Source: an uncultured Verrucomicrobiota bacterium (GTDB lineage Bacteria > Verrucomicrobiota > Verrucomicrobiia > Palsa-1439). Taken from it: a stretch of DNA of 64,000 bases. The translations under genes and the position numbers were made by a program. Of the stretch, positions 2,626 through 46,939 are shown piece after piece. The DNA is taken from assembly GCA_903825435.1 (NCBI GenBank), contig CAIKAP010000081.1, forward strand, positions 13,118 through 77,117. The letters run 5' to 3'. Position 1 is the stretch's first letter, and every line of letters begins with the position of its first letter. The notes beneath the pieces were generated by a model. The model saw nothing but the letters and a program-made list of their open reading frames with translations. It did no database searches and had not been told where the DNA came from.

Positions 2626-2708
2626 GTCCTCCATCGTTAGAGTTATTGTACTCACGCCAGCAGTCTAACATCATACTGAGCCATCTGTTAAGTAAAAGAC
2701 CTGTAAAA

Positions 2709-2731
2709 ATGTTCCGGCTTTGTTCCGGCTG
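2709..2731 (+). repeat. GTTCCGG direct-repeat element (ATGTTCCGGCTTTGTTCCGGCTG)
   Basis: two GTTCCGG heptamers 11 bp apart; member of a 13-copy family in this window; lies in the promoter region of the secreted-protein gene. Confidence 0.8.
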
Positions 2732-13966: not shown

Positions 13967-14887
13967 GTGACCGAACGACAAAAAGGAATCATCGCACTGG
14001 CGGTCGTGTTGGTGGCGTGGAGCCTGTCGAGCGTGTTCGTGAAGTACCTGATCCGCGAAGGCTACGACGCGCATACGCAGAACTTCTACCGCTACGCCGC
14101 CGGCACGCTCGTCGTGTTGCCGTTCCTGGCCCGCAGCGTCCGCCAGCGCGGCGTGAAACCGAACCGGCGGTTGCTCCTCCTGCTGTTGCTGGCGACGATT
14201 CCCAACCTGAGCCATCAGATTTGCTGGACCGTGTCGCTGAACTGGATCAACCCAGGCCTGGCGTCGTTCCTGAACAAGTCCAGCGTCCTGTTCGCCGCGC
14301 TGCTGGCGTTCGTGTTGTACGCCGAGGAACGCTGGCTGTGGCGGTCGCGCCGGTTCCTGGCGGGGCTGGGGCTGACGATTCTCGGCACCGTCGGGCTGGC
14401 GCTGCTGCGGGGCGACCTCGGCCGGGTCGAGTCGAACCTCGGCGTCGTGCTGGTGTTGATCGCGGCATTTTCGTGGGCCATGTACAGCGTCGCCGTCAAA
14501 CAGCCAACTTCGGAGGCCGGTTCGACGTTTTCGTTCGGCGTTGTCGGCCTCTACACCACGGCGGTGTTGTGGCTCGCGGCGCTGCGCTGGGGCGACCTCG
14601 GCCTGTGGTGGCGCGCCCCGTGGCACGTGAACGCCATCATGATTCTCTCCGGCGTGTTCTGCATCGGCATCGCGCACACCTGCTATTATTACGCCATGCA
14701 GCGGCTGACCGTTTCGGTGTGCGCCACGATGCTGCTGACAACGCCGGTGGGCACGCTGCTGATCTCGCGGTGGATGTTCCACGAGGAGATGACCGCCGGG
14801 CAACTCGTCTCGGGTGTGGTCCTCATCGTCGGCGCCTTCCTGACGCTGCTGGCGAAGGACAAAACTGTCGTGGCAGAACCGGTTTAG
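13967..14887 (+). CDS. EamA/DMT-family transporter
   Basis: 10-TM protein with two EamA-like halves; 306 aa. Confidence 0.6.
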   Translation: MTERQKGIIALAVVLVAWSLSSVFVKYLIREGYDAHTQNFYRYAAGTLVVLPFLARSVRQRGVKPNRRLLLLLLLATIPNLSHQICWTVSLNWINPGLASFLNKSSVLFAALLAFVLYAEERWLWRSRRFLAGLGLTILGTVGLALLRGDLGRVESNLGVVLVLIAAFSWAMYSVAVKQPTSEAGSTFSFGVVGLYTTAVLWLAALRWGDLGLWWRAPWHVNAIMILSGVFCIGIAHTCYYYAMQRLTVSVCATMLLTTPVGTLLISRWMFHEEMTAGQLVSGVVLIVGAFLTLLAKDKTVVAEPV

Positions 14888-16332
14888 CGATGCCCGCCGA
14901 GATCGGAATCGTACACGTAGCCTTCCTCGCCGTGTTCGCTGACGTCGAGGCCTTGCATCTCAAGCTCCGGTTCGACGCGGAGGTCGCCCAGTAACTTGCC
15001 GACGAGCCACGCGATGGCCAGCGTGGCACCGACCGACCATACCAACATCAGGCCGCCAGCCTTGAGCTGTTCCAGCCAGAGCGTCTTGCCGACGAGACCG
15101 TTCAGGTTCGTCGCGAGGTTCGGGTTGATCTTCGTCGAGGCAAACACCCCGGCCAGGATCGTCCCGAGCGTGCCGCCGACGGCGTGGACGCCAAACGTGT
15201 CGAGCGAATCGTCATAGCCGAACTTTGATTTCAGCTTGCTGCACGACAGGAACGTCGCCGTGCCCGCCACCGCGCCAATCAGAATCGCCGAACCGGCGCT
15301 GACAAAACCGCAGCCGGGCGTGATCGTCGCCAGACCCGCGACGGCACCGGAACAGAAGCCGAGCACGCTCGGTTTGCCGCGCGTGATGTACTCGATACCG
15401 GCCCACGCGACGCTACCGACTGCGGCGGCCAACGTGGTGGCGACAAACGCGTTCGACGCGATGCCGTCGGCCGCGACCGCGCTGCCGGCGTTGAAGCCGT
15501 ACCAGCCGACCCACAACATGCCGGTGCCAACCATGCAGAGCACCATCGAGTGCGGCGGCATCGGTTCCTTGCCGTGGCCGAGACGTTTGCCGAGGAAGAT
15601 GCAGAGCGCCAACGCCGACCAGCCGCTGGTCATGTGAACAACGATGCCGCCTGCGAAATCAATCGCCTTGATCTTGGCGTCGGGATTGGCGAGGCCGTTC
15701 ATCCAGCCGCCGTTGCCCCAGATCAGGTGCGCCGCGGGGAAATAGACGATGAACATCCAGAGCGTGCTGAACAACAGAATGGCGGAGAACTTCATCCGTT
15801 CGGCGATGGCGCCGATGATGAGCGCCGGGGTGATGATGGCGAACATGAGCTGATAGATCGCGAAGATGTTGTGCGAGACCCACGAGGCGTAGTCGGGGTT
15901 CGGCGTGGCGTCAACGTTTTTGAAGAAGGCAAATCCAAATCCGCCGAGGAAGCCGTTGCCCTTGCCGAAACAGAGGCTGTAGCCAACGGCCCACCACAAC
16001 ACCGACACCAGCCCGGCAAGGCCGAGGCATTGCGCCAGCACCGAAAGCACGTTCTTGCGGCGCACGAGGCCGCCGTAGAACAGCGCCAGCCCCGGCAACG
16101 TCATGAACAACACCAGCGCCGACGAGACCATCATCCAGCCGTTGTGGCCCGGCCCCGGCCCGGCGACCTTGGTTGCCGTGGTGGTGCGGGCCGTGTTGTT
16201 GAGGTAAGCCTCAATGTCGGCGACGCGCTGTTCGAGCGTCGGTTCCTTCGCGGGCGCGTCCGCGGCGCGAAGCGTGTTGGCAAAACACAGTGCGAGCAAC
16301 AAAACGACACAATACCGGCGTATCAAGTGCAT
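14884..16332 (-). CDS. amt: ammonium transporter with N-terminal signal peptide/coiled-coil extension
   Basis: Amt signatures (GGIVVHMTSGWSALALCIFLGKR); start set at MHLIRRY (ATG 16330-16332, AGGAG upstream) rather than ORF start 16416. Confidence 0.85.
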   Translation of the reverse strand: MHLIRRYCVVLLLALCFANTLRAADAPAKEPTLEQRVADIEAYLNNTARTTTATKVAGPGPGHNGWMMVSSALVLFMTLPGLALFYGGLVRRKNVLSVLAQCLGLAGLVSVLWWAVGYSLCFGKGNGFLGGFGFAFFKNVDATPNPDYASWVSHNIFAIYQLMFAIITPALIIGAIAERMKFSAILLFSTLWMFIVYFPAAHLIWGNGGWMNGLANPDAKIKAIDFAGGIVVHMTSGWSALALCIFLGKRLGHGKEPMPPHSMVLCMVGTGMLWVGWYGFNAGSAVAADGIASNAFVATTLAAAVGSVAWAGIEYITRGKPSVLGFCSGAVAGLATITPGCGFVSAGSAILIGAVAGTATFLSCSKLKSKFGYDDSLDTFGVHAVGGTLGTILAGVFASTKINPNLATNLNGLVGKTLWLEQLKAGGLMLVWSVGATLAIAWLVGKLLGDLRVEPELEMQGLDVSEHGEEGYVYDSDLGGHR

Positions 16333-16365
16333 AACAAAACTCTCCTTCGTCAGGAGGCCGTCGGA

Positions 16366-16382
16366 ATGCAATACCTGTGCCA
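16366..16382 (-). promoter_or_regulatory. sigma-54 (-24/-12) promoter for amt
   Basis: minus strand reads CTGGCACAGGTATTGCATT = TGGCAC-N5-TTGCA, about 45 bp upstream of the amt ATG. Confidence 0.7.
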
Positions 16383-16471
16383 GTCGCAATGGTGTGGTTT
16401 TCAACCTCCACCACAACAGTCACTTCCGGTTTTGCGATGAACACACACCAACATCGCTGGTCGTCGAAAAC

Positions 16472-16496
16472 TGACCAGCGTGGTCAAATCACGCCA
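16472..16496. promoter_or_regulatory. palindromic upstream site TGACCAGCGTGGTCAAATCACGCCA (putative enhancer-binding-protein UAS)
   Basis: TGACCA-N3-TGGTCA inverted repeat ~90 bp upstream of the sigma-54 promoter; related copies at 18424, 29767, 36667, 43288. Confidence 0.5.
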
Positions 16497-16508: not shown

Positions 16509-18285
<1,777 letters not shown>

Positions 18286-18319
18286 GACAAATCTCCTTCG
18301 TCGGTTGACTGGCACGAAT

Positions 18320-18335
18320 GCACCGCCTGTGCCAG
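18320..18335 (-). promoter_or_regulatory. sigma-54 promoter for amt (second paralog)
   Basis: minus strand CTGGCACAGGCGGTGCA = TGGCAC-N5-GTGCA (GG/GC correctly spaced). Confidence 0.6.
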
Positions 18336-18382
18336 TGGCGGGGGCGATTTCGACAAACGAAGCCGGTGCAAGCACTTCCGCA

Positions 18383-18450
18383 CAACCGGAATAAAACCGG
18401 AACATGACGCCGGTGCGGTCAACTAACCAACGTGGTCAATTTCCGACACC
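18383..18450. repeat. 68-bp composite repeat: GTTCCGG element (rc) + TAACCAACGTGGTCAATTTCCGACACC upstream site; left copy of kdp-flanking direct repeat
   Basis: about 91% identical to 29727-29792; lies in the divergent amt/kdpA intergenic region. Confidence 0.75.
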
Positions 18451-20176: not shown

Positions 20177-22230
20177 TGAGTACCAAAGTCGAAATCAAAT
20201 ACTCCGAGCTGGTCCGCCACGCGGTCATTGACGCCTTCAAGAAGCTCGACCCGCGCGACGAGATCAAGAACCTGGTCATGTTCGTCGTCTATGTTGGCGC
20301 GATCCTGAGCACCGGCGTTTTGTTCCGGAATTGTTCCGGCTTCAATATCCAGATCTGCCTCTGGCTCTGGTTTACGTGCCTCTTCGCGAATTTCGCCGAG
20401 GCGATGGCCGAGGGCCGCGGCAAGGCGCACGCCGACGCGTTGAAGAAGATGCGGACGAAGACGCTGGCCCGCAAACGCGACGGCCAGCGAGTCAACGCCG
20501 CCGAGCTGCGCAAGGGCGACGAAGTTGTCTGCGAAGCCGGTGACACCATCCCCGCCGACGGCGAAATCATCGAAGGCATCGCGACCGTTGACGAATCCGC
20601 CATCACCGGCGAGTCCGCGCCCGTCATCCGCGAAAGCGGCGGCGACCGCAGCGCCGTCACCGGTGGCACGCGCGTCATCAGCGACAAGATCATCATTCGC
20701 GTCACCGCCGATGCCGGCAACTCGTTCCTCGACCGGATGATTTCGATGATCGAAGGCGCGCGCCGGCAAAAAACACCGAACGAAATCGCGTTGAACATCC
20801 TTCTCGTCAGCCTGACCGCACTGTTTATCCTCGTCGTCATCACGTTGCCGGCGTTCGCCCGGTACAACGAGAAGGCCGCGAGCCAGACCGGTGTGGTGCT
20901 CACAACGCTGCCGGTGTTGCTGGCACTGATTGTGTGTTTAATCCCGACGACCATCGGCGGCCTGCTCAGCGCTATTGGCATTGCCGGCATTGACCGGTTG
21001 ATGCGGCGCAACGTGCTCGCCACCAGCGGACGCGCCGTCGAGGCGGCGGGTGACGTGGACGTGTTGCTGCTCGACAAGACCGGCACGATCACACTCGGCA
21101 ACCGGATGGCGACGGAATTCATTCCTGCGCCCAGTGTGAAGATCGAGGAACTCGCCGACGCCGCGCAACTCGCGTCGCTTGCCGACGAAACGCCGGAAGG
21201 ACGTTCCATCGTTGTGCTCGCGAAGGAAAAACACGGACTCCGTGGCCGCGAAGTCGCCGAGCCGCACGCCGTGCCGGTGCCGTTCACGGCGCAGACCCGG
21301 ATGAGCGGCGTGGATTTTGGCGACGGCACGCGCCGCATCCGCAAAGGGGCGACCGAGGCCGTCCAGGCGTTTGTCGAATCGCAAGGCGGTGTCATGCCGA
21401 AAGCTGTGACGCAAATCGTCGAACAGATTTCGCGCAGTGGCGGCACGCCGCTAGTCGTGTGCGACGGCAAGAACGTGCTTGGTGTCATCCAACTCAAGGA
21501 CGTTGTCAAAGGCGGCATCAAGGAGCGTTTCGCCCAGCTCCGCAAAATGGGCGTGCGCACCGTGATGATTACCGGCGACAACCCGCTGACCGCCGCCGCC
21601 ATCGCCGCCGAGGCGGGCGTGGATGATTTCATCGCGCAGGCGAAACCCGAAGACAAACTCGCCCGCATCCGTCACGAGCAAGCTGGCGGCAAATTGATCG
21701 CGATGATCGGCGACGGCACGAACGACGCTCCTGCGTTGGCGCAAGCCGATGTCGGCGTCGCGATGAACACCGGCACGCAAGCCGCCCGCGAAGCTGGGAA
21801 CATGGTGGACCTCGACTCGAATCCGACAAAGCTGATTGAGGTCGTCGAGATCGGCAAGCAACTCTTGATGACGCGCGGCGCGTTGACGACGTTTAGCATC
21901 GCCAACGACGTGTCAAAATATTTCGCAATCCTGCCGGCAATGTTCGGCGTACTCTACGCGACGACTGCGCTGGGTAAAGGCCCGCTCGACAAGTTGAACG
22001 TCATGCACCTGCACTCGCCGGAGAGCGCAATCCTTAGTGCGGTGATTTTCAACGCGCTGATCATCGTCGCGCTGATTCCGCTGGCGTTGCGCGGCGTGAA
22101 GTACCAGCCGCTCGGCGCCGCCGTAATCCTGCGCAAGAACATGCTGATCTACGGCGTCGGCGGCCTCATCATTCCGTTCATCTTCATCAAACTGATCGAC
22201 ATCGCGCTCGTCGCATTGAGGCTCGCATGA
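20176..22230 (+). CDS. kdpB: potassium-transporting ATPase subunit B (P-type ATPase)
   Basis: [21 protein letters not shown] motifs; ATG overlaps kdpA stop (TAATGA). Confidence 0.9.
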
Positions 22231-23729: not shown

Positions 23730-24683
23730 CTAAAGTGAGCAAAGCCAGCGCGTCAAAGAGGCGATTTGGCCTTCGTCGGTAAGGTTGGCAGCATTTTCAA
23801 TCTTACCGGATTGAAGCTGCGACCAGATTTCTTTTGCCATTTTCGTTTCGATGGCCGCGCCAATGAAGAACGTGTGGGGTTTCTGTTTGTGCTTGGCGAA
23901 CGATGTTTGGATGCGATCCAGAGCGGTGCGGGCGGTCTTCCAGTGTTCGTCCGCACCGGCAGGGTCAATGCCGCCTTTCAATTCGCCGAGTGCGATGTAG
24001 GCTGCGGCGTTGCCGTATACCTGCCGGCACAGGGCTTCGGGGGCGGAGTTGAAAAGCGACAGATCAACGTTGTTGCGAAATAACGGCACCGTCAGGTTGT
24101 AGATCAAGGTTCTGGTCTTACCATTGATCTGCCAACTCAGGCCGCGGACGTGGAGTTCTATGTCGGCGTCATCTTCTGGCGTGTCCGACCAGACGTTGCT
24201 CTCACCGTGCAACCACCGGTAGCCGTTGCCCGCTAATTTGAGGTGCGCGATGATCGAGCGCGTAAGTTTGCACTGTGCCATGAAACCGCCAGCATTTCGC
24301 ATTGAGCCGCCCAACGTATCGCCGCGTGTGAGCAAGAATCGGAAGACAAGTTCCTCAACAAAATTCATACCGGCTGGTTCGAGAAAATTCGCGATTAGCT
24401 CTTCGACGGCTTTGCGCTTGTCGGCCTTTTGTAGGTGGTTCGCAGCCTTGTCGGAAATGCCGGCTGCCGTTACCAGTCCGGATTGGATTGCTGGAATCTT
24501 CAGGAGGTCAGACGGTCGCTGTGCTTGAGATGCAGCAGCCTTCAAGGCACGCGCCTGAACCACATAGGGAGTCGCTCGGCGGTTCTTCTCCAATGCGAGC
24601 GCGACAAAGCCGGCACGAACGGCTTCATAGGTGGTTTCAAGATCAGCCGCAGACTTCAGGTGGGAGCGATAGGGTTTGTTCAT
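23730..24683 (-). CDS. putative Type II restriction endonuclease (partner of adjacent methyltransferase)
   Basis: 317 aa, no recognised family; tail-to-head with the MTase 3 bp away; reduced GC; assignment is by context. Confidence 0.45.
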
Positions 24684-24686
24684 GGT

Positions 24687-26276
24687 TCAACGTTTCCGCC
24701 AGACGTACACGCATTTTCGCAGCGGGTCGCGTCCGTGTGCGCCCATTTGTTGGCTGCTGTTTCCTTTTCCGTTTGGCAAAACCAAAATGCTTTCGATGTT
24801 GAAGCCGAGTTGTGCGGCCATTTCCGAGAGAATAAGGTCCACCGCAATGCTCGCACCGGCATAGCGCACGTTGTCATTGACCATGATAAGCGGCGCGCCA
24901 CGTTTCAACACGCGGACACTCTCGGCAATGACACAGGCCATTTCGTAGAAGTACCCTCGCACCATACGAGGAATGCCGGTATTGTTCAGCAGGTCGAGTT
25001 CTCGCTGAGAATCCAGATACCGCAGGATGCGTTGAAGCAGGGGGAGTTCGTTTGCCACGGCCAGAGCGTGTTTCCACTTTGGATTGAGTGCAAGCATGTC
25101 CTTCTCACGGTTCTCGACGGTGCAACTTAACATAGCCTGTCGCAGTTTAACCAAGCCAGCCTCGTCCACGCCGAGCAACGCAAGTTCCAACGCGTATGTG
25201 CGGGTGTAGTCGTAGCGGTTGCAGTAGGGCGGCGATGTGAGAATACAGTCGTAAGCAGCAGCTTTGAACGTCGGCATGATCTCCAAACAAGAACCGCTGT
25301 GCAAAACCACGTCGGCGCGCGAGTGTGTCGTGAAAAACAAGTCTTCGGGAATTGTTGCTGCTCCGAGATCGTCAACGATCTCGCCGAGTTTGCCTTTGAT
25401 GGCTTCATCGAAAGGTTGAATCCGTCCTTTGTCGAAGATCTTCTTCCCGATACGACGACCGGAACGATAATCCCATCGCAGATACTGCCCATCCTTGCGC
25501 GTAAAACCGACCGACTCAAGAACGCAAAGCAATGCGAACCGTAGAATCGCCTTCACAACGTCGTTCTCATGCTCGGAAGCGGCCAAGTATCTCCCGATGG
25601 CTTTGACTGTCGCCGGTGGGTACGCCCCCTTCGTGATGCGTAGTTCGTTAATCGAACGGCATTCCTTGGAGTGTTGCCACGGTTGCCGAACCTTCCATCG
25701 TGTGAGCGTTTCGATGTCTGGAGGACGGAACTCCAAATCAATCATCTGCTTGGTTTCGATGATGGTCTGCCCGATTGGCAGAAGTTCGATTCCTTCCGCT
25801 TTCATTCCCATCGCGCCAGCCGCAAACAAGGCCGTGCCACTCCCTGCAAATGGATCGAGCAGGACGCCGGAGGACAAATGGAAACGATTCAGAAAATGCT
25901 CAACCAGTCCGGCGGAAAACGCTTCCTTGTATTTGTACCACCGGTAAACGGCGCGGCTTTTGTTCGCCTGAAAGCTCACGAGCGAGCGCGTCAGTTCGTT
26001 GGCGACAACGATCTTGTGTCGCCAACGACGCTCCAAATCAGAACTTAAGGCGTCAATCTCCCGCAGTGCCGGGGAATCCACAACCTCGCCGTTCTTGGGC
26101 TCGCGCGCATCATCTAAAACGGCCGGAGACGCCAGCGCAAAAGATACAGACTGCACCTTCCTTGGCGGCTGTTCCATCGTTTGGGTGCCGAGCGTTTCCT
26201 CACGCACACGGGGTGTGCGGCGCTTCTTCGGCAAATACGTGACTTGTTTCCTCGGCATCAGCGCGGAGTATGCCAA
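24687..26276 (-). CDS. alpha-class DNA methyltransferase (N4-cytosine or N6-adenine; motif I ... TRD ... SPPY)
   Basis: motif I LLDPFAGSGT about 280 aa before motif IV ILTSPPYCNRYDYT; true start may be internal (MEQPP). Confidence 0.75.
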   Translation of the reverse strand: MAYSALMPRKQVTYLPKKRRTPRVREETLGTQTMEQPPRKVQSVSFALASPAVLDDAREPKNGEVVDSPALREIDALSSDLERRWRHKIVVANELTRSLVSFQANKSRAVYRWYKYKEAFSAGLVEHFLNRFHLSSGVLLDPFAGSGTALFAAGAMGMKAEGIELLPIGQTIIETKQMIDLEFRPPDIETLTRWKVRQPWQHSKECRSINELRITKGAYPPATVKAIGRYLAASEHENDVVKAILRFALLCVLESVGFTRKDGQYLRWDYRSGRRIGKKIFDKGRIQPFDEAIKGKLGEIVDDLGAATIPEDLFFTTHSRADVVLHSGSCLEIMPTFKAAAYDCILTSPPYCNRYDYTRTYALELALLGVDEAGLVKLRQAMLSCTVENREKDMLALNPKWKHALAVANELPLLQRILRYLDSQRELDLLNNTGIPRMVRGYFYEMACVIAESVRVLKRGAPLIMVNDNVRYAGASIAVDLILSEMAAQLGFNIESILVLPNGKGNSSQQMGAHGRDPLRKCVYVWRKR

Positions 26277-26304: not shown

Positions 26305-26327
26305 ATGTTCCGGTTTTGTTCCGGCTG
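26305..26327 (+). repeat. GTTCCGG direct-repeat element (ATGTTCCGGTTTTGTTCCGGCTG); opens 15-codon uORF 26305-26352 (MFRFCSGCFLAFGLR)
   Basis: between MTase start and kdpD ATG (26371); uORF stop TAA at 26350-26352. Confidence 0.8.
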
Positions 26328-26370
26328 CTTTCTTGCGTTCGGACTTCGTTAAGTACATACTCCCGTCACC

Positions 26371-29025: not shown

Positions 29026-29693
29026 GTCCGGTGGCGTTGATCATCGAGGACGAAATCCAGATGCGGCGCCTGTTGCGCGTCGGCCTGGAAGGCGCGGGCT
29101 ACAAAGTCGGCGAGGCGTCGGACGGCCAGCAGGGATTGCAGGAGATCGTGTACCAGCGACCCGACGTGGTGCTGCTCGATTTGGGATTGCCCGACATGGA
29201 CGGCGTCGAGGTGCTGAAACGGTTGCGCGAGTGGTCGCATGTGCCGGTGGTGGTGTTGACAGTGCGCGAGGACGAACACGACAAGGTCCGTGCGCTCGAC
29301 GCGGGCGCGGACGATTACCTGACGAAACCGTTCAGCACGGCGGAACTGCTGGCGCGGTTGCGGGCCGTGCAACGGCGCGCGCCCGAGGCGCAGGAGGAAC
29401 CGGTGTTTGTGTGCGGTGATCTCACGATGGATTTCGTCGCGCGAACGGTGGCGGTGAAGGGCAGGGAGGTGCATCTGACGGCGACGGAGTATTCGCTATT
29501 GCACGAACTGGTTCGCCACGCAGGTAAGGTGGTGACGCACAAACAACTGTTGCGCGCCGTCTGGGGACCGCAGGCCGAGACGCAGTCGCAGTACCTGCGC
29601 GTCTACATCACGCACGTGCGCCAGAAGTTGGAGTCCGCGGGCCGTCTGATCCGCAACGAGCCTGGTGTCGGCTACAGGTTGCTCACCGGCTAG
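29022..29693 (+). CDS. kdpE: KdpE OmpR-family response regulator
   Basis: receiver domain (VLLDLGLPDMDG) + winged-helix C-terminus; overlaps kdpD stop. Confidence 0.9.
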   Translation: MSPVALIIEDEIQMRRLLRVGLEGAGYKVGEASDGQQGLQEIVYQRPDVVLLDLGLPDMDGVEVLKRLREWSHVPVVVLTVREDEHDKVRALDAGADDYLTKPFSTAELLARLRAVQRRAPEAQEEPVFVCGDLTMDFVARTVAVKGREVHLTATEYSLLHELVRHAGKVVTHKQLLRAVWGPQAETQSQYLRVYITHVRQKLESAGRLIRNEPGVGYRLLTG

Positions 29694-29726
29694 ACACGGA
29701 TTGGTACCAGAAACCGGTAAAAACGC

Positions 29727-29792
29727 AGCCGGAACAAAACCGGAACATGACGCCGGTGCAGTCAACTAACCAGCGTGGTCAATTCCCGACAC
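29727..29792. repeat. right copy of 68-bp composite repeat (GTTCCGG element rc + TAACCAGCGTGGTCAATTCCCGACAC)
   Basis: about 91% identical to 18383-18450, same orientation, 34 bp after kdpE stop; no sigma-54 promoter or gene follows it. Confidence 0.75.
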
Positions 29793-31916: not shown

Positions 31917-31985
31917 AAGCTGGAGTCCGCGAGCCGCCTGATCCGCAACGAGCCGGGCATCGGCTACCGGCTGTTGGCGGACTAA
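31917..31985 (+). pseudogene. orphan 3' fragment of an OmpR-family response-regulator gene (kdpE-like tail KLESASRLIRNEPGIGYRLLAD*)
   Basis: about 80% nucleotide and 18/22 amino-acid identity to the kdpE 3' end at 29625-29693; no receiver domain upstream. Confidence 0.7.
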
Positions 31986-34126
31986 GCCTGTGGCGGGCGG
32001 CCTTTCCGGAAGAGGCGGATTGGCAGAATCACCACAGGCACACCGGCGAAACGGAGGCGGCGCTGGATGAAATAGGAGGTGTCGTTGTGCAGCATCCGGT
32101 CGTACCAGCGCGGTTCGTCGAACACGATCTCGCCGGCAAAGACGACGGCGCGCGGATATTCGCGGTGCATCTCCAGGCAGAGCGTGGAGACTTCCTCGAC
32201 GACGTCCAACCCGATGCGGTGCGCCCCGCGCGCGGGCACGCCGAGGCGATGGGAGAACTCGATGTATTGGTCGAGGGTGTCACGCGTGCGTTTCTCCAGA
32301 TGCTCGACTTGGTTTTCGCCCTTGAAGAACTCGGAGTTCATCACGCCGACGGAGACGAAGACGACGTTTTGGAACGTCTTCGGGAACATGCGGAAGATGT
32401 TCAGGAGGCAATGGATGCCGAGCTTGGCACTGCCGCCGACGAGGATGACGGCAGTCGGTTTCTTCGGGTCGAACTCGGGCAGCGTTGATGCGTTGGTGCT
32501 GGTGGGAATGTTGTCGAGGGAGCTTTCGACTTCGCGGACACGTCGGGCAACGTCGCGATAGTGCGAGCGGATGAGGAAACAAAGGCCAATGCAGAGGCCG
32601 GTCACGGCGAGTGTGACCCAGCCGCCTTCGCCCAGTTTCTCGATGAGCATCACCGCCAGGATCGAAAGGCACAACACCAGACCGGTCGCGTGCACGGGCA
32701 AATGTTGTTTCCATTTTGGGTCGGTCTTGCGGTGTCGGATCCAGAACCGGACCATGCCCATTTCCGAGAGCGAGAACGTGGCGAAGACGTTGATGCTGTA
32801 CATGACGACCAGCAACGTAATACTGCCGCGCGTGTACGCCAACGCCCCCGCGGCAGCGGTGCCGATCAGTAGCACGCCGTTCTGTGTCGTGAGCCGGTCG
32901 GAGAGCGCGGCGAACCGGCGTGGTAACCACGAATCGAGCGCCATGTTGGCCATCACGCGCGGGCCGTCAATGAAACCGGTTTGCGCCGCGACGAGCAGCA
33001 GGACCGATTCCGACAGAATCGTGACCGCCGCGAACCATTTCCCGACCGGTAACCCGGCGACCTGCCAGTTGCCGGCAAACGCGTTCGCGAGGACGGTGTT
33101 CAGGGTTTGACCCTCGACGGGTTTCACGCGGAAGAGCATGTAGCAGAGGAGCAGTCCGCCGGCGGTCAACGCGAGCGAGACGGCCATGTAGGTCATGGTG
33201 CGTTTGCCGGTCTGGACTTTCGGGTCGCGCATGATGCCAAGGCCGTTGGACACGGCCTCGATGCCGGTGTAGGTGCCCGCGCCGAGCGAGTAGGCGCGCA
33301 TGACCAGCAGGAATAATTTCCAGCCGCCCAACATCAACCACGCCTCGCGCCAGCCGGCGCGCGCCTGGTGCACCACCATCGGCGCGTCGCCGACGTGCAT
33401 CAACAGGCCGCCACCGATCAGGATGATGTGCGTGACGATGAACGTCAGGAACACGGGCACGAGCATCGAGACTGATTCCTTGACGCCGCGCATGTTCATC
33501 ACGGTCAACAACACGATCGTGCCGAACTCCACCGGCAGCTTGAAATGCTGGTAGTGCAGCGGCAACAAACTGAACAGGGCGTCAGTGCCGCTGGCGATGG
33601 AGACGGTGATGGTGAGGATGTAGTCCACCAGCAACGCGCAGCCGGAGACAACGCCGGCAGTGTTGCCGAGCAGTTCGGTGGCAACGACGTAACCGCCGCC
33701 GCCATGAGGGAAATGCTCGATGATGCGGCTGTACGCGTAGGAAATGATGAACACCGTAAGTGCCGTTGCCGCGGCGAGCACGACGGCAAGCCAGACATTG
33801 TTGCCGAGCGCCTTGTATGCTTCCTCGGGGCCGTAAGCTGACGACGACAGGCCGTCCGCGCCAAGGCCGACCCACGCAAGAAACGCGATGAGCGAAATCT
33901 TGTGGACAAGCGACGGGTCTTTCAGGTCGCGCGGAGCGCCGAGCACGGCGCGTCGCAACTTCTTACCAAACGTTTGGGGCAATTGCCCCGGTGCAACCGG
34001 TTCCATACTGTCCTCTCGCTTGCCTACGAGGTTAGCTGACGGGCTAAGAGGGAGAAGAACGACTCTCTTCTCCGAACATGTCGGAGTTAGCCCCAAACGA
34101 CTTGGGTCCCCCGTTCCGCGCGACAC
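31982..34126 (-). CDS. APC-superfamily amino acid/polyamine permease with extended cytoplasmic C-terminal domain
   Basis: 12 TM APC-like core (GAGTYTGIEAVSNG) + ~220-aa soluble C-terminus; real start probably internal (MEPVAPGQ, near 34005). Confidence 0.6.
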   Translation of the reverse strand: MSRGTGDPSRLGLTPTCSEKRVVLLPLSPSANLVGKREDSMEPVAPGQLPQTFGKKLRRAVLGAPRDLKDPSLVHKISLIAFLAWVGLGADGLSSSAYGPEEAYKALGNNVWLAVVLAAATALTVFIISYAYSRIIEHFPHGGGGYVVATELLGNTAGVVSGCALLVDYILTITVSIASGTDALFSLLPLHYQHFKLPVEFGTIVLLTVMNMRGVKESVSMLVPVFLTFIVTHIILIGGGLLMHVGDAPMVVHQARAGWREAWLMLGGWKLFLLVMRAYSLGAGTYTGIEAVSNGLGIMRDPKVQTGKRTMTYMAVSLALTAGGLLLCYMLFRVKPVEGQTLNTVLANAFAGNWQVAGLPVGKWFAAVTILSESVLLLVAAQTGFIDGPRVMANMALDSWLPRRFAALSDRLTTQNGVLLIGTAAAGALAYTRGSITLLVVMYSINVFATFSLSEMGMVRFWIRHRKTDPKWKQHLPVHATGLVLCLSILAVMLIEKLGEGGWVTLAVTGLCIGLCFLIRSHYRDVARRVREVESSLDNIPTSTNASTLPEFDPKKPTAVILVGGSAKLGIHCLLNIFRMFPKTFQNVVFVSVGVMNSEFFKGENQVEHLEKRTRDTLDQYIEFSHRLGVPARGAHRIGLDVVEEVSTLCLEMHREYPRAVVFAGEIVFDEPRWYDRMLHNDTSYFIQRRLRFAGVPVVILPIRLFRKGRPPQA

Positions 34127-34177
34127 GCGGATTCGGCATCGGCGGGGAAGATAGTCCCCGCCGCTGTTTTGTCAAGC

Positions 34178-35263
34178 TCACTGGCGAAACTCCGGGTAAC
34201 TCATCAATCCCGTCTCGCCGATATCCAGTCCTTCCCATTCGACCTCCGGCGCCACGCGCATCGGTGTCAACCGGTCCAGCGCCTTGAACAACACCCATGC
34301 GGCCGCGAATCCACCGCCGCCGAGCGCCGCCATGCCGGCGACTTGCGCCGCAAAATGTCCAGTACTGGCAAACGACGCGGCCAAAACGCCGCAGAGGCCG
34401 CCCGCGCCGTGGATCGAGATCGAACCGGCTGGGTCGTCAATTTTCACGCGGTCGAACCACGGCACCAGCACGCACGCCAGCAACCCGGCGACTGCGCCGG
34501 TGAACAGGCCGAACGTCGGCCCCGCGATGGCGCCGCTGGCGGCCAGCCCGGCCAACAGGCCGGTCACCGCGAGCGTCGGGTCGGGTTTGCCGTTTCGCAA
34601 CGTCATGAAAGTGACCGCAGCGATCGTGCCGCCTGCGCCCGCCAGCGCGGTGGTGGCGGCGTCGGCGTTGAGCGCGAGCCAGCCGACGCTGAGCAGCATG
34701 CTGCCGGTTAGCGCGAGCGGAACGTTGTGTGCAGGGATCGGCAGCGGGCGGCCGTCCTTGTTGTAGCGGCCGAGACGCGGACCGATGACCAGCGCACCGG
34801 CCAGTGCGACCGCGCCGCCGAAAAGATGAATCACGCCGGAGCCGCTGGGGTCGAGGTAGCCGAGCTTGGCGAGCCAGCCGCCATTCCAACTCCAGAGTGC
34901 GGCGACCGGCCAGAGCACGCCCGCAATGGCGAGCGCGCTGAGGTAGAAATGTTTAAGGCTCCAGCGTTCCGCGAGCGCGCCGATGGGGATGCAAACGACA
35001 ATCGCGGTGGTCGCGGCACGGAAAAGAAAGAGGGTGTTGTTGTCCGGAACATTTCCGGAACATCGGCTGCCGAGGAGCCAGAACGCGGCGAGCGCGAGCG
35101 CGGTGCCGAACAACGCGAGGAAAATGGTGTGACTGGCGTTTTTGGCCCGGCTCAGCCCGGCGGCCAGGAGAGAGAGGCCGCCGGGCATGAGGAGGACCAA
35201 CACGGCCGCCGCCGTAACCGACGAAGGAGACGCACTGACGACCGTGTTGGTGGGTATGGGCAT
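34178..35263 (-). CDS. short Amt/Rh-type ammonium channel (third paralog)
   Basis: 361 aa; VIHLFGGAVALAGALVIGPRLGRY and HGAGGLCGVLAA motifs; contains an in-frame GTTCCGG element (35044-35063) encoding RCSGNVPDN. Confidence 0.75.
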   Translation of the reverse strand: MPIPTNTVVSASPSSVTAAAVLVLLMPGGLSLLAAGLSRAKNASHTIFLALFGTALALAAFWLLGSRCSGNVPDNNTLFLFRAATTAIVVCIPIGALAERWSLKHFYLSALAIAGVLWPVAALWSWNGGWLAKLGYLDPSGSGVIHLFGGAVALAGALVIGPRLGRYNKDGRPLPIPAHNVPLALTGSMLLSVGWLALNADAATTALAGAGGTIAAVTFMTLRNGKPDPTLAVTGLLAGLAASGAIAGPTFGLFTGAVAGLLACVLVPWFDRVKIDDPAGSISIHGAGGLCGVLAASFASTGHFAAQVAGMAALGGGGFAAAWVLFKALDRLTPMRVAPEVEWEGLDIGETGLMSYPEFRQ

Positions 35264-36526: not shown

Positions 36527-36546
36527 CCGGAACATTTCCGGAACAT
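36527..36546 (-). repeat. GTTCCGG element (rc: ATGTTCCGGAAATGTTCCGG) in porin 5' leader
   Basis: lies between the putative sigma-54 promoter and the porin ATG; same 24-nt string as at 35044-35067. Confidence 0.75.
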
Positions 36547-36577: not shown

Positions 36578-36666
36578 CAGTGGAGAGGGTTTCCGTAAAC
36601 GCTTGGCGTGCAATTCACTGTGGGAAGCGACAAAGTTCAGCCGGTGCAGAAGAAGACAACAGCGGT

Positions 36667-36690
36667 AGCCAGTCTGGTCAAATCACGCCA
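36667..36690. promoter_or_regulatory. UAS-family site AGCCAGTCTGGTCAAATCACGCCA
   Basis: 16/16 identity with TGGTCAAATCACGCCA at 16481-16496. Confidence 0.5.
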
Positions 36691-39270: not shown

Positions 39271-39292
39271 ATGTTCCGGTTTTGTTCCGGCT
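39271..39292 (+). repeat. GTTCCGG element (ATGTTCCGGTTTTGTTCCGGCT)
   Basis: in the convergent gap between the Type IIG gene and the PP2C-kinase gene; 26-nt identity with the 29727 copy. Confidence 0.8.
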
Positions 39293-39293
39293 T

Positions 39294-41084
39294 TTATTTC
39301 GGCGGGTGGAAGATCAGCCAGATGATCAAACCGAGAATCACCAGCAGCGGCAGGCCGATGGCGAGAATGACGGAGCGATAACGTCGCAGTGCAGATTGCA
39401 TCGGGGTGGCGGCTTGAAGCCGGTCGGCGCGGCCGGTGACGGTGACGAGTTCGGGGGAGTCGAGGTCAGCTTTCAACTCGGCGGCAGAGGCATAGCGGTC
39501 GTTGGGGTCGCGGGCCATCGCGTGCAAGATTATTTCTTCAACCTGTGGCGTGAGCGCCGGGTTGTGTTTGCGTGGCGCTTCGGGATCGCCGATGAGGCGG
39601 GCATTCATGACGACGAGCGGGTTGTCACCTTCGTACGGCGCGTGGCCGGTGAGCATTTCGTAGAGGATGGCGCCGAGCGAATAGATGTCGGTGCGGGCGT
39701 CGCCACGTTTGCCGCGGACTTGCTCGGGTGCCATGAAATCGGGCGTGCCGAGCGCGGGACTGAACCCGGCAAAGGTGATACGTTTTCCAGCCGCGCCGGC
39801 GATGCCGAAGTCCATGAGGCGGATCGTGCCGTCGGGACAGATCATGATGTTCTGCGGTTTCAGGTCGCGGTGGATGATGCCGTTTTGGTGGAGATAAATC
39901 AGGGCGTCGGTGACGCGGCTGGCAATGGAAAGGGCGTCGCGCGGTGGTAACGGGCGGACATTGGTGAGGAGGTGGGCGAGCGTGTAGCCGCGCAGGTATT
40001 CGGTGACGATGTACGGGCGGCTTTTGTTTTCGACTTTGATGAATTTGAGGATGAAAGGATGGTTGAGGCGGAGGCCGATGTCTTCTTCGCGCTCGAAGCG
40101 GGAGAAGAATCCGGGGTCGCTCTCGAACTGGAGGTGCGGGACTTTGACGGCGACGTATTGTTTGTCGTGGGCGAGGTCCTGCGCTTTGAAGATGGTGGCC
40201 ATGCCGCTGCGACTGATGGTCTCGGTGACGAGGAAACGGTTGTCGAGCGTCTGGCCGGGCTGGACTTCGGTGGTTGAGGCGGACGGCGCGGCGGGCGTGT
40301 GATAGACGGGGACGCCACGGTACGAACCGACTTCCTCGACGGCGTTGATCTGGACGACTTGGACGCTGACGTTATCTTCGGTGCCGCGTTGTTCCGCGAG
40401 GGCGACGAGCTGGCGACCGGCGGCGCTGGGATTGAACCGGCTGACGATGTCGCAGATCTCGCCGTCGGCGACACAACCGTGCAGGCCGTCGGTGCAGAGG
40501 ATGAGCCGGTCACCGGCGAGGAGATTGGTGTCGTCCACGTCAATGCGGATGGTCGGCTCCTGGCCGATGGTGCGCGTGAGCATGGAGCGGTTCTCGCTGG
40601 TGCGCGCGTCGGCCTCGTTGATGAGGCCGAACTTGCGCTGCATGGCGACGTAGGAATGATCGGTAGTGAGCTGGCGGATTTCGTTGCGGCGGGCGAGGTA
40701 GACGCGAGAGTCGCCGACGTTGCCGATGGTGGCGGTGTTGTGACGGAGGATGACGACGGCCAGCGTGGTGGCGATGCGGCTGCGACCGTGCTCCTTCATG
40801 CCCTCGTCGTACACGGCGAGGTTGGCGGCTTGAAAAATTTCGGTGATGAGTTGCTGCGGCGCGGTGCCGGGTTTGGCTTCGCGGAATATCTTGAGCGCAG
40901 CGTCAACGGCGAGCCGGCTGGCGACTTCGCCGCGCTGGAGGCCGCCGAGGCCGTCGGCAATGACGACGATACTGCCGCGCTCGCGTTTCTCGTCGAGTGA
41001 GTCGGGCTTCCAAAAACCGACGCTATCCTCGTTGTGGTCGCGAACGGGGCCTGCGGTGGTGAGTTCAGCGTAGGTCAGTTCCAT
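39294..41084 (-). CDS. bifunctional PP2C phosphatase / Hanks-type Ser/Thr protein kinase with C-terminal TM anchor
   Basis: N-terminal PP2C (NEDSVGF, IADGLGG, DGLHG), central kinase (VAVKV, HRDLKPQNIM, DFGIA, APE), C-terminal hydrophobic helix. Confidence 0.8.
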   Translation of the reverse strand: MELTYAELTTAGPVRDHNEDSVGFWKPDSLDEKRERGSIVVIADGLGGLQRGEVASRLAVDAALKIFREAKPGTAPQQLITEIFQAANLAVYDEGMKEHGRSRIATTLAVVILRHNTATIGNVGDSRVYLARRNEIRQLTTDHSYVAMQRKFGLINEADARTSENRSMLTRTIGQEPTIRIDVDDTNLLAGDRLILCTDGLHGCVADGEICDIVSRFNPSAAGRQLVALAEQRGTEDNVSVQVVQINAVEEVGSYRGVPVYHTPAAPSASTTEVQPGQTLDNRFLVTETISRSGMATIFKAQDLAHDKQYVAVKVPHLQFESDPGFFSRFEREEDIGLRLNHPFILKFIKVENKSRPYIVTEYLRGYTLAHLLTNVRPLPPRDALSIASRVTDALIYLHQNGIIHRDLKPQNIMICPDGTIRLMDFGIAGAAGKRITFAGFSPALGTPDFMAPEQVRGKRGDARTDIYSLGAILYEMLTGHAPYEGDNPLVVMNARLIGDPEAPRKHNPALTPQVEEIILHAMARDPNDRYASAAELKADLDSPELVTVTGRADRLQAATPMQSALRRYRSVILAIGLPLLVILGLIIWLIFHPPK

Positions 41085-43310: not shown

Positions 43311-43375
43311 GCCCGGCCGCCGACCGGTAAGGACAGGCTTGCCGCAGCCTGTGTGCGTTGGCATACTGCGCAGGC

Positions 43376-46075
43376 ATGAACGCTTCCGATTTCATCGCCA
43401 AATGGAAACCCGTTGACCTCAGCGAGCGTTCCGCCGCCCAGCAGCATTTCCTCGATCTCTGCGAACTCGTCGGCCATCCCAAGCCGGTCGAAGCCGACAA
43501 GACCGGCGAGTCCTTCTGTTTCGAGAGAGGCGCGGCGAAGCAAGACGGCGGCGACGGCTGGGCCGACGTGTGGAAGAAAGACTTCTTCGGCTGGGAGTAC
43601 AAAGGCAAACACAAAGACCTCGATGCCGCCTACGACCAGCTCCTGCAATACCGCGAATCCCTCGAAAACCCGCCGCTGCTGGTCGTCTGTGACATGGACC
43701 GGATCATCGTCCACACGAACTTTACCAGCACCAAGGCCCAGACCTTTGCCATCCCGCTCGCCGAACTCGACACGCCGCGCAGCCTCGAAATCCTTCGTTC
43801 CGTCTTCTTCACCCCGGACAAGTTGAAGCCCGGCGTCACCAGCGAGGCCATCACCACCGCCGCTGCCCAGCGCCTCGCCGACGTGGCGCTGAAAATGCGC
43901 GACCGGGGACTCGACCCGCAAGCCGTCGCCCATTTCCTCGACCGCATTGTCTTCTGCCTATTTGCCGAGGATGTGGGACTGCTCCCGCGCGACTTGTTCA
44001 GCCAGATTGTTACCAAGTGCGCGCATGACCCGAAACGCTTCGGCAAGTACGTCGCTGACCTGTTTGTCGCGATGGCCAACGGTGGCGAATGTCTCATGCA
44101 AGACATCCGCCATTTCAACGGCAACCTCTTCGATGAATCTCCCGTGCTCGAACTCACCGGCGACGAGATCGCCAGTGTTCAAGCCGCCGCCGAACTCGAC
44201 TGGAGCGAGGTCGATGCCTCCATCTTCGGCACGCTCTTCGAGCGCGGCATGGACCCCGCCAAGCGCTCCCAACTCGGCGCGCACTACACCAGCCGCGACG
44301 ACATCACCACCCTCGTCGAGCCGGTTGTCATGCAACCGCTCCGCCGCGAATGGACCGACGTGCGCGCGAAGATGGATAAACTCCTTGCCGGCGACGCCAA
44401 GAAAAACCGCGCCGCCGCCGAGAAACAATTCCTGCAATTCCTCCAACGGCTCCAAGGCGTCCGCATCCGCGACCTCGGCTTCACGCCCAGCTTCCCGCAG
44501 GTCAACCCGCAGCAACTTCACGGCATCGAAATCAACCTCTACGCTCACGACCTCGCCCAGATGACTTGCTGGATTGGCTACATCCAATGGCTCCGCGCCA
44601 ACGGTTACGGTTTCCCCGCCGAACCCATCCTGCGCCGCCTCGACAAAAACTTCCAATGCGCCGACGCCCTCACTGCCACCTGGCCCGCCGTGGACTTCAT
44701 CGTCAGCAACCCGCCATTCCTCGGCGGAAAGAAGATGCGCGCCGAACTCGGTGACGAGTACATGGACAAGCTTTTTGCCGACTGGGGTGACCGCGTGCCG
44801 CCGGAAGCGGACTTCTGTTGCTACTGGTTCGAGAAAGCGCGCGCCCATCTCGAAACTGGCAAGGTGCAGCGGGCCGGGCTGCTCGCCACGCAAGCCATTC
44901 GCGGCGGCGCAAACCGGCAAGTCCTCAAACGCATCAAGGATACCGGCGACATCTTCTTTGCCGAGAGCGACCGCCCGTGGATTCTCGACGGTGCCAACGT
45001 CCACGTCTCCATGATCGGCTTCGACAATGGCAGCGACAAGACGCGCATCCTCGACGGCCTGCCGGTGCCGACAATCAACGCCAACCTCACCGCCGTGGCA
45101 GACGTGACGCAAGCCAAGCCGGTCGCCGCGAATCTTAACCTCTCCTTCATGGGCACGACCAAGGGCGGCGCGTTCGACATTCCCGAGACGCTCGCGCTGG
45201 AACTTCTCCGCCAACCCAATCCGCATGGCCGCCCCAACTCCGACATTGTTGTGCCGTGGGTCAACGGCCTCGACGTGACGCGCCGCTCACGCGGCATGTG
45301 GATTATTGATTTCGGCGTCGGCTTGCCGGAACAGGAAGCCGCCAAGTACGAAGCACCTTTCGAATATGTTCGGCAACACGTGAAACCGGAACGCGAGAAG
45401 TCGCGCACAACAATCTCGGAATGGTGGTTGCAGGAACGACGGCGTGAAGATATGCGTATCGCACTTGCGCCTTTGCCGCGTTTCCTTTGCACGTGCCGGG
45501 TATCCAAGCACCGCATCTTCATCTGGCTCACCGCGCCGACGCAACCGGACAGCGCGACATTCGCCTTCGCCCGGGCCGACGACTACTTCTTCGGTGTCCT
45601 GCACTCACGGGCGCATGAAGTCTGGGCGCTGAAACTCGGCACGCGATTGGAGACGCGACCGCGCTACACGCCGACGACCTGTTTCGAGACGTTTCCATTT
45701 CCCGGCGCGACGCCGGAGCAACAAGCCGCGATTGCCGCCGCCGCGCAGGAACTCGACACGCTTCGCACCAACTGGCTGAATCCGCCCGAATGGACGCGCG
45801 AAGAAGTCTTGGAGTTTCCCGCCCGCGCCGATGGCCCGTGGGCGCGGTACGTCCAGAACGGCGTTGCCCGCTACCCGCGCCTCGTGCCGAAGGATGCCGA
45901 CTGCGCCAAGAAACTCGCCAAGCGCACGCTGACCAATCTCTACAACGAGCGTCCGACGTGGCTCGCCAACGCCCACGCGAAGTTGGATGCCGCCGTTTTC
46001 GCCGCCTACGGCTGGCCGGTGACGGTGACGGACGAGCAAATCCTGGAGAGATTGCTCGCCTTGAATTTGCAGTAA
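43376..46075 (+). CDS. MmeI-like large SAM-MTase-family protein (nuclease motif and NPPF present, glycine-rich SAM loop apparently absent)
   Basis: D-X9-EXK (DVWKKDFFGWEYK); GAHYTS motif X; SNPPFLGG motif IV; region corresponding to FFDPACGCGNFL replaced by RDLGFTPSFPQ; start taken at MNASDF. Confidence 0.65.
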   Translation: MNASDFIAKWKPVDLSERSAAQQHFLDLCELVGHPKPVEADKTGESFCFERGAAKQDGGDGWADVWKKDFFGWEYKGKHKDLDAAYDQLLQYRESLENPPLLVVCDMDRIIVHTNFTSTKAQTFAIPLAELDTPRSLEILRSVFFTPDKLKPGVTSEAITTAAAQRLADVALKMRDRGLDPQAVAHFLDRIVFCLFAEDVGLLPRDLFSQIVTKCAHDPKRFGKYVADLFVAMANGGECLMQDIRHFNGNLFDESPVLELTGDEIASVQAAAELDWSEVDASIFGTLFERGMDPAKRSQLGAHYTSRDDITTLVEPVVMQPLRREWTDVRAKMDKLLAGDAKKNRAAAEKQFLQFLQRLQGVRIRDLGFTPSFPQVNPQQLHGIEINLYAHDLAQMTCWIGYIQWLRANGYGFPAEPILRRLDKNFQCADALTATWPAVDFIVSNPPFLGGKKMRAELGDEYMDKLFADWGDRVPPEADFCCYWFEKARAHLETGKVQRAGLLATQAIRGGANRQVLKRIKDTGDIFFAESDRPWILDGANVHVSMIGFDNGSDKTRILDGLPVPTINANLTAVADVTQAKPVAANLNLSFMGTTKGGAFDIPETLALELLRQPNPHGRPNSDIVVPWVNGLDVTRRSRGMWIIDFGVGLPEQEAAKYEAPFEYVRQHVKPEREKSRTTISEWWLQERRREDMRIALAPLPRFLCTCRVSKHRIFIWLTAPTQPDSATFAFARADDYFFGVLHSRAHEVWALKLGTRLETRPRYTPTTCFETFPFPGATPEQQAAIAAAAQELDTLRTNWLNPPEWTREEVLEFPARADGPWARYVQNGVARYPRLVPKDADCAKKLAKRTLTNLYNERPTWLANAHAKLDAAVFAAYGWPVTVTDEQILERLLALNLQ

Positions 46076-46917: not shown

Positions 46918-46939
46918 ATGTTCCGGTTTTGTTCCGGCT
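46918..46939 (+). repeat. GTTCCGG element (ATGTTCCGGTTTTGTTCCGGCT)
   Basis: in the convergent gap between the rhodanese gene and the PP2C gene. Confidence 0.8.

Follow-up and report, generated by a model that had tools for sequence, protein, structure and literature searches.

The stretch of DNA considered here, 64,000 nucleotides of contig CAIKAP010000081.1 from an uncultured Verrucomicrobiota bacterium (hereafter the window, at its full 64-kb length), contains a short repeated element whose copy upstream of kdpD (ATGTTCCGGTTTTGTTCCGGC, positions 26305–26325) raises the question of whether such sequences are read as peptides or as DNA. The initial annotation described the element as intergenic, opening with an ATG and a conserved Cys-containing open reading frame (ORF) of the type MFRxCSG, and proposed a translated leader, an upstream ORF (uORF) or a Cys-dependent regulatory peptide; as a fallback, the ATG would be incidental to a DNA-binding site. 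That the element is a word at the level of DNA, rather than a uORF, is nearly certain, because its copies are dispersed over coding as well as non-coding DNA in either orientation, originated by substitution, are nearly invariant between species and are restricted to a narrow clade. The element is a lineage-specific iterated DNA word, most likely a putative tandem protein-binding site, and the fallback fits the evidence on scattered, nucleotide-conserved copies.

The word is 19 bases long and is composed of two direct repeats of the octamer TGTTCCGG that follow each other at exactly 11 bp, or one helical turn; the triplet between them is A/T-rich, mostly TTT or AAA, and the flanks show weak preferences (gcg..R before and C.g after). 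In the window, TGTTCCGG-N3-TGTTCCGG was found 13 times (11 times without mismatch, once with one and once with two), on the plus strand in 7 cases and on the minus strand in 6, against a chance expectation of 0 in 100 dinucleotide shuffles and in 20 third-order Markov simulations. The consensus given in the initial annotation, with up to 3 mismatches allowed, likewise gave 12 matches in the window where none was expected. Perfect copies occur at a density of 1 per 5.8 kb, and the mismatch spectrum is all-or-none: for 0, 1, 2, 3 and 4 mismatches, 11, 1, 1, 4 and 12 sites were observed and 0, 0, 0.05, 1 and 11 were simulated under the third-order Markov model, which places the three-mismatch class at background level. 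As 23 of the 27 octamers in the window are paired, the unit is the pair. A pattern scan of metagenomes returned at least 120 stretches, many from few samples, with 146 unique perfect copies among the matches listed, and it is to these listed matches that all metagenome figures below refer. In the 146 copies, information is confined to the two octamers and the flanks are only weakly biased, and the spacer is TTT in 47% and AAA in 27%, with other A/T triplets making up most of the remainder. Across 178 copies, the flanks contain almost no information.

All seven positions at which the initial annotation placed the element do carry it. The start quoted for them, xTT TGT TCC GGC, is exact at five (ATGTTCCGGNTTTGTTCCGGC at 2709, 26305, 39271 and 46918 on the plus strand and at 29748 on the minus strand), and the minus-strand copies at 18405 (ATGTTCCGGTTTTATTCCGGT) and 36546 (ATGTTCCGGAAATGTTCCGGA) depart from it. 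The element is by no means purely intergenic, because six more of the 13 copies lie inside coding sequence, as judged from the Pfam annotation of the window and from gene calls on the parent contig, and these six are read in differing frames, one of them antisense. A degenerate copy with two mismatches (AGTTCCGGAAATGTTCCTG, 612–630, minus strand) lies inside an unannotated 887-aa ORF (2–2664, minus strand). The other five are perfect: 20321–20339 (plus strand, spacer AAT) inside kdpB, with codons LFRNCSG; 35044–35062 (minus strand, spacer AAA) inside a third amt paralogue (34178–35263, minus strand), where it is read as CSGNVPD, a frame other than that of MFR; 52825–52843 (plus strand, spacer ATT) inside der, with codons VPDLFR; 56910–56928 (minus strand, spacer AAA) inside a methyltransferase gene (56394–57113, minus strand); and 63663–63681 (plus strand, spacer ATT), antisense inside purD, with codons PPEQIRN on the other strand.

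The seven intergenic copies are placed as follows. The flagged perfect copy (26306–26324, plus strand, spacer TTT) lies 47–65 nt upstream of the kdpD ATG and is flanked by kdpD and a divergent methylase gene; a one-mismatch copy (TATTCCGG, 18386–18404, minus strand) lies 100 nt upstream of amt (start 18285); and a perfect copy with spacer AAA (36527–36545, minus strand) lies between a TGGCAC-N5-CTGC promoter-like site and the porin ATG, 14–32 nt before the latter, with its own ATG in frame with porin. The perfect copy at 2710–2728 (plus strand, spacer CTT) is antisense to both of its neighbours, which are minus-strand genes. Three of the 13 copies, all perfect and with spacer TTT, are found between convergent genes: 29729–29747 (minus strand) between kdpE and a DUF2130 gene, 39272–39290 (plus strand) at 4 nt from the stop of a kinase gene (39294–41084, minus strand), and 46919–46937 (plus strand) between rhodanese and PP2C genes.

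A translated uORF or leader peptide (MFRxCSG...) with a regulatory effect on the gene downstream would account for the seven intergenic copies that start with ATG, and for the 15-codon ORF MFRFCSGCFLAFGLR that one of them indeed forms at 26305–26352 on the plus strand, ending 18 nt before the kdpD ATG at 26371. We give this explanation practically no credence. No GGAG, GAGG or AGGA occurs 4–18 nt upstream of any intergenic copy, that of the kdpD leader included, and the sole match resembling a Shine–Dalgarno sequence among the window copies belongs to the antisense purD copy. ORFs opened by the first triplet range from 7 to 636 codons and share nothing past the seven residues that the motif encodes. 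Copies also occur in other frames, antisense to genes and between convergent genes, and copies without the ATG but with intact half-sites are common: the base preceding TG in the 146 listed copies is A in only 80 (55%), G in 31%, T in 11% and C in 3%. In the three closest kdpD relatives (L333–L335, 77–79% identity), no copy was found upstream of kdpD, so the "leader ORF" is not a conserved feature of kdpD; the 15-codon ORF is a chance product of the copy. Since frames differ, ORF length varies and Shine–Dalgarno sequences are missing, the conserved "peptide" is merely the word read in one frame, and the ATG, Phe-Arg and Cys-Ser-Gly codons are the spelling of the word in that frame. The initial annotation was right about the copies at 18405 and 36546, which share the reading frame of amt and porin, respectively, and explain implausibly early ORF starts: they give rise to a 514-aa amt ORF (16861–18405) and a 425-codon porin reading from 36546, where the called amt start is 18285 and the porin start is read as 36513, preceded by GGAGG. 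For annotation, this means that the word yields false starts and N-terminal extensions (amt, porin) as well as false small ORFs (the kdpD "leader"), and gene callers should mask it.

How the copies arose was seen most clearly in der. Homologues of der align without gaps at the copy, with VPDLFR in close relatives and VLDLFR, VNDLFE and similar sequences in distant ones. The codons of the window, AGT GTT CCG GAT TTG TTC CGG, form a perfect copy; those of L114 (83% Der identity) end in ...TTC CGT, with one synonymous mismatch; and L116 (AGC GTT CTG GAC CTG TTT CGC) and L118 (AAC GTG CTG GAT TTG TTC CGA) have no copy. The word in der was therefore built from synonymous choices plus one Leu-to-Pro change; it is kept at synonymous positions, and this copy is common to two other species. 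Similarly, the purD copy falls where alignment with solved PurD structures is poor, and the kdpB copy in a poorly conserved loop after the first membrane helix; neither shows a 21-bp insertion, in the case of kdpB by comparison with Escherichia coli KdpB. In L116, the methyltransferase orthologue differs in the core by three mismatches, without an indel. Altogether, the gene-internal copies in der, purD, kdpB, rsmB and the methyltransferase gene are in register with their homologues, and no indel is needed to explain them.

Conservation between species was measured by an all-against-all comparison of the fetched loci, which gave nine orthologous pairs between motif-bearing species at 76–88% identity. 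Within these pairs, the octamers differ at 4 of 144 positions (2.8%) and the twelve flanking bases at 21 of 108 (19%; Fisher p = 2e-5), with a background divergence of about 17% in the orthologous comparisons. Conservation is thus at the nucleotide level, synonymous positions in der included, which tells against a peptide. The porin-leader copy of the window and its orthologue in L200 illustrate this: the octamers are identical (16 bases) and the flanks nearly so, and the spacers are AAA and TTT, a swap that would mean Lys-to-Phe in the supposed peptide. As the octamers are unchanged across this swap, the comparison argues that the spacer need only be an A/T tract. The porin-leader copy of L114 was also considered as the orthologue of window copy 36545, and was discarded because the alignment puts it on the other side of the promoter.

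Spread by insertion, either as a miniature mobile element or as a structured RNA or terminator hairpin, would be in line with the 26–35 nt that some intergenic TTT-type copies share at most and with the many copies just past stop codons. Partner genomes without the word, however, differ at the site by several substitutions and never by a clean indel, the flanks are nearly information-free, and there is no orientation bias relative to transcription. In addition, only a 4-bp CCGG stem is possible, folding of six copies gave no consistent structure (z-scores of −2.1 to +0.8), and no copy has an Rfam match. On the ground that orthologous empty sites show nothing but substitutions, a miniature inverted-repeat transposable element was rejected. 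Unlike such elements and repetitive extragenic palindromic (REP)-like repeats, the word forms no stable hairpin, is not restricted to intergenic DNA and lacks presence/absence patterns of the insertion type. Dispersal by insertion is therefore very improbable: the copies arise in place by point substitution.

The window is part of an 85-kb contig of a metagenome-assembled genome (MAG), and its Der and KdpD proteins are closest to those of Verrucomicrobiia MAGs. Besides the window, we found the word in at least 5 related genomes or MAGs, comprising L114, L173, L200 and the MAGs CAZNOK01 and VHCW01. Among the matches listed for species-representative genomes, CAZNOK01, a Verrucomicrobiota MAG, accounts for at least 17 positive stretches and VHCW01 for at least 4, and the other genomes have single, presumably chance, matches. 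L114 contains one perfect and two one-mismatch copies in 21 kb. No copy was observed in 43 kb of L116 and L118 (Der identity of 78% and 74%), nor in 35 kb of the three closest KdpD relatives. The range of the word is limited to a narrow group of freshwater Verrucomicrobiota, slightly more distant relatives being without copies. It provides a simple sequence signature for the clade in metagenomes. A literature search for the octamer returned primer sequences only.

Gene context was analyzed in a set of 141 metagenome copies from loci of matching base composition. Intergenic copies number 75, with convergent and divergent gene pairs in a ratio of 15:5, and the other 66 fall within predicted coding sequence, where 35 are sense and 31 antisense and all three phases are represented. 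This pattern is the opposite of that of promoters, operators or leaders. A sense-strand bias, suspected from about 10 of the 13 window copies, was gone in this set. A regulon of amt, kdp and porin genes was also abandoned: a porin gene was present in only 1 of 120 motif-bearing metagenome loci, and amt and kdpA-D in none, so the gene association noticed in the initial annotation is local to this window.

These placements bear directly on the possibility that the word is an operator, bound by a tandem-binding factor of the OmpR/PhoB type or by a LexA-like repressor. Its geometry is that of the pho box and related OmpR-PhoB operators, in which two conserved direct repeats with an 11-bp period and an A/T-rich spacer imply head-to-tail binding on one helix face, and some copies do lie upstream of amt, porin and kdpD. 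The alphaproteobacterial LexA box is GTTC-N7-GTTC, a direct-repeat spacing that can also be read in the word. Furthermore, TGTTC is a half-site of the Verrucomicrobia LexA box, TGTTC-N4-GAACA (PMC4951493). An operator is nevertheless quite improbable, as 47% of copies are inside genes, intergenic copies prefer convergent over divergent spacers, no coherent regulon emerges, the position relative to the porin promoter differs between the window and L114, and the all-or-none mismatch spectrum is unlike that of real operators. Unlike the pho box, the word is not confined to promoters and is perfect rather than degenerate. Unlike the LexA box, which spans the phylum and is a palindrome, the word is a direct repeat limited to one small clade and needs an extra CCGG; its copies are far too numerous and, in the Pfam annotation of the window, do not adjoin SOS genes, and TGTTC-N4-GAACA palindromes in the window are at chance level.

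Several features in the neighbourhood of the amt, porin and kdp genes can be recorded here. A 28-nt element with the palindrome TGACCAnnnTGGTCA occurs at 16469–16496, 18421–18448, 29764–29791 and 36663–36690. At amt (next to the 18404 copy) and at porin it stands upstream of sigma-54-type promoter-like sites of the form TGGCAC-N5-(G/C)TGC; at 16469 it is upstream of the first amt gene, and at 29764 no convincing promoter or gene follows. These elements are probably enhancer-binding-protein sites. The word copy at 18386–18404 lies between such an enhancer-type palindrome and a TGGCAC-N5-GTGCA promoter, and is part of a 67-nt repeat (18383–18449 and 29726–29792, 93% identical) in which the palindrome element is joined to a copy of the word. 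The CAZNOK01 orthologue of this repeat (L037) is nearer the 29.7-kb copy than the orthologous one, and the repeat looks like the remnant of a duplicated amt upstream region. Two tandem amt paralogues (14884–16416 and 16861–18285, both on the minus strand) have a P-II gene between them and are 81% identical over 300 nt (15401–15700 versus 17354–17653); the third, shorter amt adjoins porin. The sole Rfam match in the window is a cyclic di-AMP (c-di-AMP) riboswitch (RF00379, 71 bits, 34006–34148, minus strand), the leader of an amino-acid-permease-family gene (31982–34126, minus strand) that adjoins the kdp genes, a placement that fits c-di-AMP control of potassium uptake.

Four intergenic copies are located at junctions of segments that relatives lack, which raises the possibility that the word is a recombination or integration site, at which a recombinase or recombination pathway would act so that acquired segments end up adjoining it. 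Copy 26306 is at the edge of a BsoBI restriction–modification (R-M) pair missing in L335; copy 29747 borders the DUF2130 segment, which has no counterpart in L333 and is flanked by a 68-nt kdpE duplicate; and copies 36545 and 46919 stand on either side of a 10.4-kb stretch that neither L114 nor L116 has. All of these junctions are intergenic anyway, so the association may be due to chance. In addition, nearly half of the copies among the matches listed are in intact genes with no rearrangement, the flanking copies are in mixed orientation, and no recombinase gene is nearby in the Pfam annotation of the window. We therefore regard a role in recombination or integration as unlikely, if somewhat less so than an operator.

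The segments themselves deserve a brief description. The R-M genes of the window comprise two MmeI-like type IIL genes plus a BsoBI-like endonuclease and methylase (3223–6039, minus strand; 43358–46075, plus strand; 23730–26276, minus strand). A 4HB gene directly adjoins kdpD in L335, and the BsoBI pair stands between the two in the window. The 3' end of kdpE is duplicated (29625–29692 and 31917–31984, 81% identical) on either side of a 2.2-kb segment that carries the DUF2130 gene and a 256-aa gene and is not found in L333, a pattern that suggests insertion by recombination anchored in kdpE. The 10.4-kb segment (36.7–46.9 kb) between the porin and PP2C genes encodes an 822-aa unknown protein, a kinase-phosphatase fusion, a permease, an MmeI-like protein and a rhodanese, and has copies of the word at both junctions and one inside.

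What, then, is the word for? The constraint demonstrably acts on the double-stranded DNA sequence, independently of the direction of transcription and of reading frame. We consider it likely that the word is a docking site for a sequence-specific double-stranded-DNA-binding protein, of which two subunits or domains would bind head to tail. The 11-bp period would set both subunits or domains on one helix face, and the A/T triplet may supply a narrow, bendable minor groove between them.

The purpose of such docking can be proposed only tentatively. Our leading guess is that the sites serve as a "self" tag on the DNA of the clade, like the uptake sequences of Neisseriaceae and Pasteurellaceae, which the word resembles in its scatter over the contigs covered, excess information, all-or-none mismatch spectrum, formation by substitution at tolerant positions, enrichment past gene ends and narrow clade. 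The perfectly kept sequence amounts to about 32 bits, far above what is needed for specifying a few hundred sites. The spread of perfect copies would be slow, driven by biased uptake and recombination or by some equivalent process, and limited to the places that proteins and promoters tolerate. On this analogy, the bipartite tag might bias DNA uptake or recombination towards kin within a small group of uncultured freshwater Verrucomicrobiota, a more specific idea that we hold with slightly greater reserve. Several observations weigh against a self tag of this kind. With one copy per 5.8 kb in the window, and one per about 27 kb when only the "extra" copies of the ascertained metagenome loci are counted, the word is sparser than would be expected of an uptake sequence, and the unevenness of its density between loci could mean regional clustering, as for chromosome-organising sites. 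Known uptake sequences are single asymmetric words and not tandem octamers. Natural transformation is not known to have been reported for the group, and our literature search on uptake sequences or competence in Verrucomicrobia found nothing relevant. As for competence genes, the Pfam annotation of the 64-kb window itself shows no type IV pilus, ComEA, ComEC or DprA.

The main rival to the self tag is that the copies are putative binding sites of a chromosome-organising or nucleoid-associated protein, comparable to the ParB-parS, Noc, SlmA or MatP systems, with a role in chromosome positioning or structure and not in gene regulation. Near-perfect, information-rich and orientation-independent copies that occur inside genes and are kept at orthologous positions between species are consistent with this role, as is an uneven density that fits regional clustering. 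The known systems, however, generally use palindromes at tens of sites per genome and are usually widely conserved, in contrast to a denser direct repeat found in a very narrow clade, and no candidate protein was identified. A chromosome-organising role is thus conceivable but doubtful, and we place it behind the self tag. Words kept at the DNA level inside genes throughout a genome are rare. If the self-tag reading is true, this would be the first uptake-type tag outside Proteobacteria and the first with a tandem architecture. A tandem version in uncultured lake bacteria of this phylum would be a sign of a self-recognition or chromosome-organising system that has so far gone unrecognised.

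The 19-mer is an undescribed, clade-specific tandem-octamer word, and it belongs to a known class of iterated genomic words. Within this class, known uptake sequences occur about once per kb and have an information content beyond the need set by the number of sites. To our knowledge, neither transformation nor an uptake receptor is known in the phylum of the word, unlike in hosts of the DNA uptake sequence (DUS) and the uptake signal sequence (USS). Like DUS and USS, the word is short, occurs far above chance, is common to related species and absent outside the group, and lies in genes as well as spacers, in either orientation, with far more perfect copies than near-misses. Similarly, its coding copies were made by substitution in tolerant segments (der, purD, kdpB, rsmB and the methyltransferase gene), it is enriched past gene ends, and its information exceeds what the number of sites calls for. 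It differs in being a tandem octamer with a fixed 11-bp period, where DUS and USS are each one 9–12-mer, and in a density about 5–25 times lower. The general properties of uptake sequences have been described previously (PMC2817400; PMC3630211), and a 2025 survey found uptake-enhancing sequences only in Neisseriaceae and Pasteurellaceae (10.1101/2025.10.24.684340).

HIP1 (GCGATCGC) of cyanobacteria is also a clade-limited word that is iterated over coding and non-coding DNA and maintained at the DNA level, with a function that is still debated, and both words contain a potential methylation site (CCGG in the word described here). HIP1, however, is one 8-bp palindrome that occurs about once per kb, whereas the present word is a 19-bp direct repeat of lower density. 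Chi and the FtsK-orienting polar sequences (KOPS) are likewise chromosome-wide, species-specific words at about one per several kb, but they are 8-mers co-oriented with replication, and the present word is bipartite. As far as co-orientation can be judged from the small sample of one 64-kb window, the copies divide into 7 plus and 6 minus where the GC skew is near zero to positive with no clear switch.

The octamer itself was also met in viral contigs, in which TGTTCCGG recurs at a 10–11 bp period in arrays of 4–6, comparable with the replication-origin iterons of phages and satellites (the TGTTCACC repeats of the P4 alpha type). Most matches of a viral scan belonged to unrelated spacer families (CAA, GTC) or to iteron arrays, and copies dispersed as in the chromosome were not among them. 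The arrays are located at 400–450 in L274, 100–150 in L302, 3987–4047 in L269, 1369–1622 in L240 and 3209–3471 in L252; some consist of inverted blocks about 200 nt apart, and that of L269 lies just downstream of a 984-aa Toprim primase-like gene. We take these arrays to resemble the origin repeats of satellite phage P4. The chromosomal copies differ from origin iterons in being isolated pairs that are dispersed, occur inside genes and are not clustered by a replication gene. By analogy with the viral tandem arrays, therefore, proteins that read TGTTCCGG in tandem plausibly exist.
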